DNA from: Eubacteriales bacterium
GTDB lineage: Bacteria > Bacillota > Clostridia > Oscillospirales > CAG-272
DNA: 51,734 bases
Direction of reading: 5' to 3'
Assembly: GCA_045606685.1 (NCBI GenBank)
Contig: JAZUSJ010000058.1
Location: forward strand, 1-51,734
Position numbers and translations under genes: made by a program. Positions 12,320-15,989 of the stretch are shown piece by piece. Numbering within the stretch: the stretch's first letter is position 1; every line of letters begins with the position of its first letter. The notes beneath the pieces were generated by a model, which ran no database searches, had not been told where the DNA came from, and was given only the letters and a program-made list of their open reading frames with translations.

Positions 12320-13806
12320 AAAAGAAAGAATGGAATGAAGGTCTGAATCACATTGATCCCGATCTTGTTGAAAAACATATTGAGCAAAAGGAAAGGCTCA
12401 GGAAGAAAAACAAAAAAAACAAAGCCATATGGCTTCGTTTGGGAGCAATCGCAGCTTGCTTCGTGCTGATTTTGGGTGTAGTTATCGCTGTACCTATGTT
12501 ACGAGAGGATGATCCGGGGATCATTCCGGAACCAGGGACTACGGAAAATCCCGTTGTGAATCCTCCCGATTATACCCCGATTATTTTTGATGCCACTGTG
12601 TCCCCCGAACACTTGAACGGTAATAGCTTGGAATTCATAGTAGGATCTTCTGTAGCTATAAGTGGTGGTGAAAGTGCCGCACCACCTGCATTTCAATTTA
12701 GCCATGGAATTGCTGTTAAAGCAAAAGTGGTAAAGAATCATCCCGACAAATATTATAAGCTTGACGTAAGCTCGGATTATTATCCTACAGCATATCGATT
12801 GATACAGATGGAAACAATCGAAGTAATCAGCGGTGAAAATGTACCACAGTATTTTTTGTATTTGATTCCCGAGTATGTCTATGTTGATATGTCGGTATAT
12901 GATTCACTCTTAATATCTATGATGCAACTTGGTCTCGAAAATTACGTGCTGAAAAACGAGGCACAAAATCAAATGGAGTCCTTTGAATTATCCATATTTG
13001 CAGACTACCAAGATCATCCCGAACTTGGTAATATTATCGCTTTTACAGATGGCGTGTTTGATGAGAGCTTGTGGCAAAACGATACTTGGCGATACGGTTA
13101 TCAATTCGCCGAGATGGATCTTGATAATCCCGAGCAAAGCAATCTCGTTGTGGCGCGTGGAGATTCAGAAGATACGGTGATATCCGCCATCAAAGAACAA
13201 TATGATGCATGGTATAACAACCATACGCATTCCGTAAAAACTCTTGGTTTTACCACTCAAGCAGCCAAAGATGCCCTTGAATACGTAAAACCTTTTGCAA
13301 ACGGTGTCTTTTCACAAACTTATCTGCCGTATAATGGAAGCGGAGAGCTTATTTTCAGACGCTATATTAACGGCTGTCAAACCGAAGAAACAATAAGAAT
13401 TGATCTTCTTACCGAAGAAGTAACTTATTCCGAAGTTCGATATACCAAGGAAGATATGGAACAGATTGAAAATATCTCCGCACATCTCTCCGAAAAATCT
13501 AATGAGTATATGGAACAATTGCCGACTCCGCCTCATACCGATCCCGAAGGTAAAGAACTTTTATGCCTTAACTTGTACGCATGGTACGTCAAGGTTGACG
13601 GCAAATTGTACGGTGTTATCAAAACTGCTTGGAGATATAAAGAAGCAGATAATTACTTCCTTCAGTATTATGATGATTCCTATGTTCTTTACGATATGTC
13701 AGCAGGAACCGCTACCAATATTTCAAGAGATGACTTGGTGCCTATCATAGGAACTCGTAATGTGTATATGGGTGAGTACGGAAAAGGAATTGAAATGCCC
13801 ATATAA
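12316..13806 (+). CDS. Putative single-pass anti-sigma factor (pair 2)
   Basis: ATGA overlap; N-terminus WNEGLNHIDPDLV, TM segment WLRLGAIAACFVLILGVVIAVPML, Pro-rich linker, ~410-aa extracellular domain. Confidence 0.75.
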   Translation: MKKKEWNEGLNHIDPDLVEKHIEQKERLRKKNKKNKAIWLRLGAIAACFVLILGVVIAVPMLREDDPGIIPEPGTTENPVVNPPDYTPIIFDATVSPEHLNGNSLEFIVGSSVAISGGESAAPPAFQFSHGIAVKAKVVKNHPDKYYKLDVSSDYYPTAYRLIQMETIEVISGENVPQYFLYLIPEYVYVDMSVYDSLLISMMQLGLENYVLKNEAQNQMESFELSIFADYQDHPELGNIIAFTDGVFDESLWQNDTWRYGYQFAEMDLDNPEQSNLVVARGDSEDTVISAIKEQYDAWYNNHTHSVKTLGFTTQAAKDALEYVKPFANGVFSQTYLPYNGSGELIFRRYINGCQTEETIRIDLLTEEVTYSEVRYTKEDMEQIENISAHLSEKSNEYMEQLPTPPHTDPEGKELLCLNLYAWYVKVDGKLYGVIKTAWRYKEADNYFLQYYDDSYVLYDMSAGTATNISRDDLVPIIGTRNVYMGEYGKGIEMPI

Positions 13807-13821
13807 CTGTATAAGAATAGC

Positions 13822-13847
13822 AAGGCGAGCGTTTCAGCGCTCGCCTT
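13822..13847. repeat. 26-bp palindromic junction repeat, copy 2
   Basis: AAGGCGAGCG-TTTCAG-CGCTCGCCTT, followed by ATTTGAAAT. Confidence 0.9.
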
Positions 13848-13849
13848 AT

Positions 13850-13878
13850 TTGAAATTTCCTCAAAAATATGTTATAAT
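13850..13878 (+). promoter_or_regulatory. sigmaA promoter for ECF pair 3
   Basis: TTGAAA-17 bp-TATAAT with TG extension; AAAATATGTTATAAT is identical to the pair 2 promoter. Confidence 0.8.
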
Positions 13879-13953
13879 TATTTTTGAAAAGTGTAAGATT
13901 TCGTGTTTTCGATTGTATTAAATAGTGAATCGATTCAAAAGAGAGGTGAGACT

Positions 13954-14514
13954 ATGGAGGACAAAAAATTACTGCGACTACTACATAAAGACCCGAACGC
14001 TGGAATGGAACAATTATTGAATCAATACACAGGTCTTGTTTATGCTGTTGTCAAAAGCAAGCTTGACGGTTCTTTCTATGTTTCATCTGATCTTGAAGAC
14101 TGTGTGGCAGACGTATTCAGCAAATTCTATACAGAGCTTGCAGACTATGATCCTGCAAAGTCGAGTATCAAATCCTATCTGTGCGTCATCGCACGTAATC
14201 ATGCAATCAATGTTGCCAAGAAACGAAGCCTTGAAGGTGGTATTTCTCTTGATGACGAGCAATCTCTTTTGCAGATTGCAGATGATGTGATGATCGACAG
14301 CGAGCTTGCCGATGAGGAGCTTCGACGCGAGGTTATTAGGGCGGTCGAGGATCTCGGAGAGCCGGACTCAAGCATCATCTTCCGTAAGTATTATTATGGT
14401 GAGTCCTCAAAAGAGATCGCAAAGGCCACCGGACTTTCTGTTTCAAATGTGGATACGCGAACACACAGAGCCTTAAACAAACTACGTAAAATGTTTGGAG
14501 GTAATGAGGTATGA
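13954..14514 (+). CDS. ECF sigma-70 factor (pair 3)
   Basis: DLEDCVADVF, SIKSYLCVIARNHAIN, RKYYYGESSKEIA...G.SVSNVDTRTHRAL.KLR; ATG 13954 with GAGGTG RBS. Different subfamily from pairs 1 and 2. Confidence 0.92.
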   Translation: MEDKKLLRLLHKDPNAGMEQLLNQYTGLVYAVVKSKLDGSFYVSSDLEDCVADVFSKFYTELADYDPAKSSIKSYLCVIARNHAINVAKKRSLEGGISLDDEQSLLQIADDVMIDSELADEELRREVIRAVEDLGEPDSSIIFRKYYYGESSKEIAKATGLSVSNVDTRTHRALNKLRKMFGGNEV

Positions 14515-15989
14515 AGAAAACACTAAATCATATTTTTGACGAAGCGAATGCAGGTGAGATTGAAAATCTCGTCAAGCAGAACGCTGCGCCCGAAGTTTCG
14601 GCTGATACGCTTTCCTCTATCAAGGATAAGGTGTATGCCAAAACGAACTTAAAGAAGGAGAGGAAAACCAACAAAAACGTATGGTTTCGCTTTGGAGCAA
14701 TCGCAGCTTGCTTCGTGCTGATTTTGGGTGTAGTTATCGCTGTACCTATGTTACGAGAAGATGATCCGGGGGTTATTACTCCTCCCGATGAAACGAGCAA
14801 TGATATTGAAGAAAACTCGGAACCGGGAACTACGGATAATAACAGGCCAAATGTTCCGTCTTGGGATACGGCACAATATTCGGCAGAAGACATAGCAAAA
14901 ATCTTTGACTCTGTGAAATTTGACAGTGTGGCAACGAATGCTTATACGAAGATATATGTTCCTGATAGCAAGTATTTATATATCGGCAAAGTGACTGATG
15001 ATGAATACCTTAAATTATATCAACACACACAGATAGACAAAGAATTGAACGAGGTGGAATTGAAGGCATTCATTGATGCGTTTCTTCCTAAACTGGCCGA
15101 ATCTCTCAACGTACCGGTATCACAATATAATATCGAAGAAAACAATTATAGTACAGGCGACAACACGCTATCTGCCGATTTTGACATCGATCCGTTTTAT
15201 CTGTCGGTGTCACAAAATACGCAAAGGAACTCGTTGAGCTTTAGTACGTTGGGAAGTAACAGGCAAATTGCTATAGACGGAGAAACAATTCAGATTGACC
15301 AGCGTCTTTCCGATGAGGAGATTATTGATTCTATTCAATCTATAAAAAGTAAACTGTTCGGAATTTTCGGCATATCTTTTTCTAATGCAAAAGTAGTCAG
15401 ATACTATGGTTCCTATTCCAAGTATGGAGTAGAGCACATCGATATTTACTTTTATGATCAGAGCGCACACGAACTCAACTCGTCACAATCCAGACCAATA
15501 ACGGATTATATGTATATCAGCTTTGATAATTTTCCCAACTATTCCGGTGATATTGTAAGCGACAGTATACTTACGGTGTCTAGCGTATACTATTTAAAAA
15601 ATCGAAGCGATCTCGGCGACACCCAATATGACGTTGTCGCAAATGCAAAAAGAATATCCATAAGCGAAGCTGAGGCATTGCTGTATAATGGGTATGTTTT
15701 CGGAGGTCACTCTTGTCCTTTGTGTATGAAGGCTCAAGATAAAATAGACTTTGAAGGCTATGATTTTGTTGATATTGAATATGTGTTCGAATATAGCAAC
15801 GAAAACGGAACACCTTCGATCGGAATCCCGTTCTATGCATTTTATAAGAATATCGGAACTTCTGAGAATGGAAACACCATCTACGCAAAAACTTATGTGC
15901 CGGCGATAGAAGTCAGTGGATACAAGGAGTATTTTGAAAGTCAAAAAGATAATCACCGAAGCAATTGGGGCGTTGATGAAGTAGGATAA
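14511..15989 (+). CDS. Putative single-pass anti-sigma factor (pair 3)
   Basis: ATGA overlap; TM segment WFRFGAIAACFVLILGVVIAVPML; extracellular domain with a GGHSCPLCM motif. Confidence 0.75.
   Translation: MKKTLNHIFDEANAGEIENLVKQNAAPEVSADTLSSIKDKVYAKTNLKKERKTNKNVWFRFGAIAACFVLILGVVIAVPMLREDDPGVITPPDETSNDIEENSEPGTTDNNRPNVPSWDTAQYSAEDIAKIFDSVKFDSVATNAYTKIYVPDSKYLYIGKVTDDEYLKLYQHTQIDKELNEVELKAFIDAFLPKLAESLNVPVSQYNIEENNYSTGDNTLSADFDIDPFYLSVSQNTQRNSLSFSTLGSNRQIAIDGETIQIDQRLSDEEIIDSIQSIKSKLFGIFGISFSNAKVVRYYGSYSKYGVEHIDIYFYDQSAHELNSSQSRPITDYMYISFDNFPNYSGDIVSDSILTVSSVYYLKNRSDLGDTQYDVVANAKRISISEAEALLYNGYVFGGHSCPLCMKAQDKIDFEGYDFVDIEYVFEYSNENGTPSIGIPFYAFYKNIGTSENGNTIYAKTYVPAIEVSGYKEYFESQKDNHRSNWGVDEVG

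Follow-up and report, generated by a model that had tools for sequence, protein, structure and literature searches.

Several paralogous pairs of a sigma factor and an anti-sigma factor within one clostridial genome are known from the SigI/RsgI sets of cellulolytic clostridia (PMC6582324). A comparable multiplicity was found in the window, a stretch of 51,734 nucleotides of an Eubacteriales bacterium (contig JAZUSJ010000058.1 of assembly GCA_045606685.1, termed G000): three tandem sigma/anti-sigma cassettes occupy 10.1-16.0 kb on the plus strand, and two of the anti-sigma genes, AS2 and AS3, share a nearly identical block of 78 bp which codes for their transmembrane (TM) helix. The putative anti-sigma proteins agree with RsgI in crossing the membrane once, in a short part on the cytoplasmic side that binds the sigma factor, and in variable sensing modules outside the cell. 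Unlike in the SigI/RsgI system, the sigma factors match models of the extracytoplasmic function (ECF) type (TIGR02937) and the anti-sigma proteins have neither RsgI_N nor any other Pfam domain, which places the cassettes outside that system. To our knowledge, and in the literature searched, RsgI genes are not described as recombining at a conserved TM-coding block.

Closer in the type of sigma factor are RsiW, RsiV and RseA, ECF anti-sigma factors that are released by regulated intramembrane proteolysis. As with these, the anti-sigma genes in the window stand alongside an ECF sigma gene, the products would pass the membrane once with the N-terminus inside, and the N-terminal part (N-part) is predicted to bind between sigma regions 2 and 4. 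Unlike them, the N-part comprises 38-57 aa, models of the zf-HC2/RskA and DUF4179 types gave no match, and the extracellular domains (ectodomains) have no family. Conserved stretches between a constant part and swappable C-terminal modules are known as the joints of polymorphic toxins, e.g., the VENN motif of CdiA and the PxxxxDPxGL motif of Rhs proteins. In its logic, the block comes closest to these joints, being a short conserved coding stretch that would permit in-frame module exchange by homologous recombination. It differs in that a signalling protein is concerned, both sides vary, the joint is a membrane helix and orphan module arrays were not seen. Short-tract gene conversion between bacterial paralogues is known for tufA/tufB and pilE/pilS. 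As in these genes, a tract is more alike between paralogues than between orthologues, synonymous sites included; the tract in the window, however, is about 65-78 nt long and has flanks that cannot be aligned. A full-text literature search, with subscription journals outside its coverage, did not find a TM-coding recombination joint of sigma/anti-sigma cassettes. A family name for these anti-sigma proteins was not found in Pfam, NCBIfam or the literature searched, and PMC7406223 and PMC7826278 mention neither shuffling nor recombination. Modular anti-sigma factors and gene conversion between paralogues are already known; the new element would be the TM-coding joint of the sigma/anti-sigma cassettes.

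The transmembrane-coding block of AS2 and AS3

The two block copies (coordinates in Table 1) show no difference in their first 65 nt. The sole mismatch is a synonymous GAG/GAA exchange at 12505-12507, and both copies encode GAIAACFVLILGVVIAVPMLREDDPG in frame. Their starts are 2252 nt apart, and they are embedded in a wider repeat (12402-12525 and 14654-14777) of 88 % identity. A search of the 2.9-Mb assembly (279 contigs, 93 % complete), as recommended in the sequence-only reading that had pointed out the block, yielded DNA-level matches at these two sites only. Between the proteins, similarity is confined to residues 18-86 of AS2 and 37-118 of AS3. The same reading had called the flanks on both sides unrelated. 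This is nearly right: the N-parts have no detectable similarity, and the C-terminal parts (C-parts) are only 26 % identical over 130 aa in a local alignment. A second shared patch, EPGTTEN in AS2 and EPGTTDN in AS3, is present as it was described; it belongs to a linker motif, PGTT(D/E)N, that is family-wide and not private to this pair. The diverged version of the block in anti-sigma gene 1 (AS1), WLKWGAIAACF, was found as well. The helix has a proline that is conserved (VVPML) and a group of small residues (GAIAAC). One may guess that its constancy reflects a common membrane-level step, e.g., regulated intramembrane proteolysis or helix packing through these two motifs.

Identity at this level exceeds what a common protein sequence would bring about. 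In a chance model, the amino acids were held identical and the codon usage of G000 was applied to the 26 codons: 9.7 +/- 2.3 identical codons were expected, 25 were observed (P(>=25) = 6.4e-11). The blocks of G002, G007_1 and G022_1 agree with each other in all 26 amino acids, but only in 16-22 of the 26 codons and in 67-73 of the 78 nt. Given these same-residue relatives and the expected 9.7 codons, codon bias together with protein-level constraint is inadequate to account for the identity of the block.

The AS2 orthologue in the congener G002 is 92 % identical over all 1491 nt, yet its block agrees in 63 of 78 nt, and the lowest 30-nt windows (63-76 %) fall on gene nt 136-180, the helix core. 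The block of AS2 is thus more similar to the paralogue than to the orthologue (77 versus 63 of 78 nt) between diverged flanks, the pattern by which gene conversion is recognised. AS2 and AS3 of G000 have the TM variant FVLILGVVIAVPML in common, which differs from the consensus at five amino acids. The consensus, GAIAACFLLIVSAVIVVPMLREDDPG, is encoded by G002, G007_1, G022_1 and G177_1. Consensus-type helices, FLLIVS(A/V)VIVVP(M/I)L, are carried by the closest relatives, namely P0001 for AS2 (C-part 98 %), P0121 for AS3 (C-part 97 %) and the G002 orthologue, and the variant is therefore considered derived. P0005 carries a near variant, FVLILGTVIVVPML. The sites that are informative for the exchange lie between about 12453 and 12501, which limits the tract to about 84 nt at most. 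Block identity between paralogues whose flanks separated anciently is a signature of non-reciprocal exchange. Judged from these comparisons, the blocks of AS2 and AS3 were evidently homogenised recently over about 65-78 nt. The recent recombination or gene conversion postulated from the window alone is thereby supported by the private variant, by the consensus in the nearest relatives and by a dip in identity exactly at the block. Short-tract gene conversion between the adjacent paralogues is the most likely process, a third donor of the block is possible. A patch of AS3 covering the TM helix and the linker (gene nt 162-335) is 83-96 % identical to G010_1, a gene of sigma 2 type with an N2 N-part, so more than one exchange must have taken place in the history of the locus.

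A separate observation concerns the 3' part of AS2. Positions 13255-13750 (gene nt 940-1435) are 96-100 % identical over about 500 nt to L026 of G177, another genus; the 5' two-thirds of the gene are 36-96 % identical. The pattern suggests a mosaic gene, recent lateral exchange or mis-binning.

Reassortment of sigma and sensor modules

A hidden Markov model (HMM) built from the 40-residue block region had matches in 42 of the 151 genomes sampled from the family and, within the genus, in 10 of 16. The juxtamembrane and TM consensus of the anti-sigma family, WLRFGAIAACFLLIVSAVIVVPMLREDDPG, is strongly conserved. Thirty-nine cassettes were extracted, of which 24 (450-512 aa, C-parts in alignable clusters) entered the trees; two of the remaining 15 were cut by contig ends and 13, including AS1, had other or short C-parts. 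In the sigma tree, the deep clades S3, which holds sigma 3, and S2 were both supported by 100/100. Clade S1 comprised a '2-type' subgroup (S1-2, support 85/64) and, not resolved at its base, six B-type rows (S1B). The deep clades of the C-domain tree were C3 (100/100), Cc (95/92), CA (100/100) and Cd (100/100). The pairing of the two modules follows neither tree: S1-2 sigma factors were linked to CA (6 cassettes), Cc (4) and Cd (2), but not to C3; S1B to CA (2) and Cd (4), with none in Cc and C3; S2 to Cc (2) and Cd (1), with none in CA and C3; S3 to Cd (1) and C3 (2), with none in CA and Cc. In approximately unbiased (AU) tests, the C-domain data rejected the sigma clades S2 (p 1.3e-4, log-likelihood difference 489) and S3 (p 0.0035, log-likelihood difference 14.5), and the sigma data rejected the clades Cd (p 5e-49) and Cc (p 2e-5). 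The sigma and C-domain trees, a comparison close to that proposed in the sequence-only reading, are hence strongly incongruent, and the fixed N/C pairing that would speak against a rewiring was not seen among the homologues. N-part type tracks the sigma clade, which places the junctions between N-part and ectodomain.

The nucleotide sequences locate these junctions further. Among 148 cassette pairs differing in both modules, the median nucleotide identity was 57 % in the block, 35 % upstream and 29 % downstream. Where the modules of two cassettes (sigma plus N-part on one side, sensor on the other) are otherwise unalignable, nucleotide similarity is confined to the block. Identity profiles in 30-nt windows revealed at least five chimeric breakpoints at the block or its edges. 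G010_1, G022_1 and G007_1 are 66-100 % identical to AS2 as far as the 3' end of the block (about nt 205), and about 40 % thereafter. In G023_1, the similarity to AS2 begins only at the 5' edge (about nt 100), whereas the first 96 nt of the gene correspond to G007_2 and G013_1. G140_1, whose block lies at 184-261, resembles G022_2 until about nt 228; its similarity to G000C47_1 starts at about nt 181. Between G153_1 and G067a_1, the similarity drops inside the block. A wider sample presented the same variety. The 120 best matches of AS2 had N-parts of the types N2 (43), NB (54), N3 (11), N4 (4), N5 (4) and N6 (2), two being unclassifiable; the 120 best matches of the AS3 ectodomain had N2 (75), NB (14), N3 (13), N4 (12) and N1/N2-fused (3) N-parts, three being unclassifiable.

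According to these sequence comparisons, the modules of sigma plus N-part and of sensor have clearly been reassorted repeatedly, and the junctions fall within the block or on its borders. One sigma type consequently occurs with different sensors, and one sensor with different sigma factors, as expected if the TM joint allows a rewiring of input to output. Among the N-parts, those of P0129, P0130, P0138 and L096 (G393) have an AS1-type start (..FDMVEDVYE..) fused to an AS2-type N-part (..LNYLDPDLVEKY..); this N1/N2 fusion has the look of a hybrid sigma-binding part, or of two such parts in tandem.

Hybrids of the second and third pair were predicted in the sequence-only reading as the product of a 2.25-kb deletion. 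A crossover between the two block copies would lead to a protein of 473 aa. P0121, from a metagenome assembly, has this length; its identity is 92 % to AS2 in the N-part and 97 % to AS3 in the linker and C-part. Reciprocal hybrids are P0031 (N-part 93 % to AS3, C-part 82 % to AS2) and P0012 (81 % and 86 %, respectively). L108-L110, from metagenome-assembled genomes titled Eubacteriales, Oscillospiraceae and Lachnospiraceae, combine a sigma factor 86-89 % identical to sigma 2 and an N2 N-part with a C3-type ectodomain (66-84 %); in these, a sigma factor of the sigma 2 type would listen to a sensor which in G000 is wired to sigma 3. The predicted architecture thus exists in P0121 and L108-L110. 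Loss or duplication of the 2.25-kb unit would be feasible, since the perfect repeat of 65 nt is longer than the minimum usually cited for RecA-dependent recombination in E. coli. For a read-level check, Logan contigs of four gut metagenome runs were used, the best with 0.55 of the sampled words. The joints 12416>14678 in X3 (side 27, nine other letters between) and 12416>14926 in X1 (side 97) are too weak for the predicted deletion. Loose ends in X4 join the block leftward to AS2-type or B-type N-parts, and one contig continues to a G007_1-like linker.

Weighing the explanations

We hold it to be highly probable that the window contains tandem cassettes of an unannotated family, that the blocks of AS2 and AS3 were recently homogenised and that modules have been repeatedly reassorted at the block. 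Each of the self-contained cassettes combines a terminator hairpin and a promoter of the sigma-70 type with an ECF sigma gene and a gene for a putative single-pass anti-sigma factor. Short-tract gene conversion would have homogenised the adjacent paralogues AS2 and AS3; the shared block would supply the homology for in-frame crossovers, and the conserved terminator/promoter junction would act as a second homology site. Apart from the block and this junction, no stretch appears to have the length and similarity needed for homologous exchange between the otherwise unalignable cassettes. An extension of this reading, a shuffling system with three joints (hairpin, promoter and TM block), is rather doubtful. 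The TM block would then be an evolved in-frame adapter similar to the VENN joint of CDI toxins, its nucleotides kept uniform by sufficiently frequent conversion, so that any sigma factor and N-part could be recombined with any sensor. If true, this would amount to a combinatorial rewiring of envelope signals to regulons in gut Oscillospiraceae.

A number of points have to be set against repeated reassortment and recent conversion at the block. Selection for functional chimeras would also leave breakpoints at the domain border, and the role of homology is one that we infer. The hybrids lie in other genomic contexts, have consensus helices and do not represent a deleted version of the G000 locus. 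Concerted evolution is not general: the blocks of tandem pairs agree in 67 of 78 nt in G022 and in 37 of 78 in G007. The p-values of the AU tests are somewhat optimistic, as the clustering was already known when the groups received their names; bootstrapping of the sigma tree was not fully settled and the C-domain tree came with long-branch warnings. A donor with the private variant was not found in the assembly, which is 93 % complete. All genomes compared are metagenome bins, G000 included. The Logan contigs of the four runs break inside the block and verify neither copy base by base. A contig of X1 follows AS3 into the first 29 nt of the block (14694-14722) and continues with a consensus-type core. 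It looks like a strain variant, mosaic inside the block; strain variants therefore exist, and an artefact of the consensus or of the assembly path retains a small probability.

The completeness of the assembly (93 %) and the derived state of the variant in both genes, whose nearest relatives are of the consensus type, would agree with an independent uptake of the same block by AS2 and AS3 from outside, i.e., from another strain or from a third paralogue in the unassembled part of the genome. The mosaic nature of AS2 relative to other lineages, with its 96-100 % stretches in common with G177, adds to this. Such an uptake requires, however, two events with nearly identical tract ends, a third copy was not found in the assembly, and for conversion no substrate is simpler than adjacent direct repeats at a distance of 2.25 kb. 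We regard an outside donor as unlikely.

Even less credit is given to an artefact of assembly or binning, in which the block of one paralogue or strain was threaded through stretches common to both genes, while the genome itself would have two different blocks. The fragmentation of the G000 bin, the contig breaks within the block in all four metagenomes and the X1 contig, with an AS3-like gene and a different second half of the block, are what such an artefact might produce, and the sequence flanking the variable core is near-identical across the family. But a single contig of 51.7 kb contains both copies between unique flanks, G002 and G177 show the N/C pairing of AS2 again, as G022_2 does that of AS3, and the private variant is five amino acids off the consensus, with a near variant elsewhere (P0005). 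The reassortment at the level of the family is independent of the G000 assembly.

Nucleotide-level selection without recombination, acting in addition to protein constraint through codon bias, RNA structure or a signal embedded in the block, is hardly tenable: the 26 identical residues in G002, G007_1 and G022_1, with G177_1 the same, and a weak hairpin predicted at 14693-14715 would suit it, but the codon comparisons given above, a fold z-score of -0.69 and the absence of an Rfam match in the block argue against it. Short-tract gene conversion between AS2 and AS3 is retained as the preferred explanation for the identity of the blocks.

Locus anatomy, encoded proteins and significance

The sigma factors belong to the ECF superfamily by their TIGR02937 matches above the cutoff of 42.9 bits (54.8 bits for sigma 2, the others in Table 1). 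Sigma70_r2 of Pfam was found in all three, r4_2 in sigma 1 and sigma 3. Sigma 2 and sigma 3 are 23 % identical. For AS1-AS3, neither Pfam nor NCBIfam yielded a family (E<=0.01), and a sequence search of the PDB had no match. In all 39 extracted relatives, the sigma reading frame ends at the start of the anti-sigma gene. The AS genes probably encode anti-sigma factors, considering the gene context, the single-pass layout with the N-terminus inside, the co-variation of N-part type and sigma clade, and a predicted complex. The layout shows in a lysine-rich stretch followed by a hydrophobic helix, modelled by AlphaFold2 (AF2) as a helix of residues 15-62 in AS2; the N-part of 38 aa was modelled as a short helix and a long helix that runs into the TM segment. 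For residues 1-42 of AS2 with sigma 2, the predicted complex reached an ipSAE of 0.92 in three runs (best control 0.01), a mark that 51 out of 78 solved complexes attained, as did 2 out of 108 mismatched pairs. The pLDDT of the partner was 86, and at least 98 % of the contacts agreed between the runs. Predicted contacts involve sigma residues 64-83 and 99-146, between regions 2 and 4. The model shows a likeness to known, solved complexes of ECF sigma and anti-sigma factors, not a proof. Class I anti-sigma domains (ASDI) are four-helix domains of about 80-90 aa. The AS proteins are not of this class (zf-HC2/RskA), as the searches of Pfam and NCBIfam gave no match and the N-part of AS2 has 38 aa.

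The ectodomains were compared with known structures. The AF2 model of AS2 (pLDDT 80.8) had no clear match to the PDB in Foldseek (TM <=0.2); for residues 124-300, matches to NTR/TIMP-like OB folds (Z 7.7) were graded as middling, and a fold was not assigned. The AF2 model of AS3 (pLDDT 69) retrieved 5coz (EUBREC_2869, uncharacterised, E 2.7e-6) and the kinase regulator YycI (2o3o, E 3.7e-5, TMt 0.44-0.47). Given the pLDDT of 69, the likeness of the modelled AS3 sensor to 5coz and YycI may serve only as a lead.

Table 1. Features of the three tandem sigma/anti-sigma cassettes in the window
Feature	Position	Strand	Remarks
ECF sigma factor 1	10234..10794	+	Pfam Sigma70_r2, r4_2; TIGR02937 58.5 bits; 41 % identical to sigma 2
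Putative anti-sigma 1 (AS1), 244 aa, diverged TM block WLKWGAIAACFAVAF	10791..11525	+	block HMM 34.1 bits
Terminator hairpin copy 1, AAGGCGAGCG-N6-CGCTCGCCTT, cassette end	11563..11588	+	
Sigma-70-type promoter TTGAAA-17-TGTTATAAT, 5' of sigma 2	11591..11619	+	11/12 match, extended -10
ECF sigma factor 2	11723..12319	+	likely start MELQSK behind AGGAGG; listed reading frame from 11669
Putative anti-sigma 2 (AS2), 496 aa	12316..13806	+	N-part of 38 aa, K-rich stretch, TM block, linker, CA-type ectodomain
TM-coding block copy 1 (GAIAACFVLILGVVIAVPMLREDDPG)	12442..12519	+	77/78 nt versus copy 2
Linker motif EPGTTEN	12529..12549	+	
Terminator hairpin copy 2, cassette end	13822..13847	+	
Promoter TTGAAA-17-TGTTATAAT, 5' of sigma 3	13850..13878	+	11/12 match with TG
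ECF sigma factor 3	13951..14514	+	likely start MEDKKLL; listed reading frame from 13903; TIGR02937 91 bits
Putative anti-sigma 3 (AS3), 492 aa	14511..15989	+	N-part of 57 aa, TM block, longer linker, C3-type ectodomain
TM-coding block copy 2	14694..14771	+	77/78 nt versus copy 1
Linker motif EPGTTDN	14820..14840	+	within the TM-plus-linker patch similar to G010_1
Terminator hairpin copy 3	16008..16033	+	between AS3 and the convergent 1157-aa gene

Stop codons of the sigma genes and start codons of the anti-sigma genes overlap by 4 nt (10791/10794, 12316/12319, 14511/14514). The promoter region of sigma 2 is 84 % identical over 57 nt to its copy at 13822-13878. The GC-rich hairpin AAGGCGAGCG-N4-8-CGCTCGCCTT has five copies in the genome, three in the window and one each at C47:6430 and C90:1686, all 3' of cassettes of the family, and recurs at the cassettes of relatives regardless of the sensor type; it has the look of a cassette border that is specific to the family. 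G000 contains two more such cassettes, at C47:7747-7848 and C90:1916-3402, both on the minus strand: one has an anti-sigma protein of 486 aa with an N4-type N-part, a Cd-type sensor and a sigma factor of clade S2, the other a protein of 290 aa. The convergent gene at 16046-19519 (minus strand) codes for 1157 aa with a lipoprotein-like start (..LLLLLPCLAACK..) and without a match in NCBIfam. It adjoins cassettes also in G002, G007 and G010, and it is possibly a target of the regulon. Between this gene and an MntP-like gene (8586-9245), the number of cassettes varies from one to three. A regulator of the HTH_3/XRE type with a hydrophobic C-terminal half (9399-10067, plus strand) adjoins the cassettes here, in G007 and in G010.

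Database searches with two queries retrieved 418 and 539 matches at E<=1e-3. They reveal a large family of putative anti-sigma factors in ruminant and other gut Clostridia, without a name in Pfam or NCBIfam. It is common in uncultured members, with records under Oscillospiraceae and Eubacteriales. The family presents a natural, well-sampled case in which sensor input and ECF sigma output have been recombined repeatedly at a single defined point, the membrane helix. This makes testable how far single-pass signalling proteins tolerate an exchange of modules and whether the membrane helix acts as a neutral connector. For the construction of chimeric anti-sigma sensors, a design rule may be derived: the parts would be joined at the WLRFGAIAAC...PMLREDDPG block.

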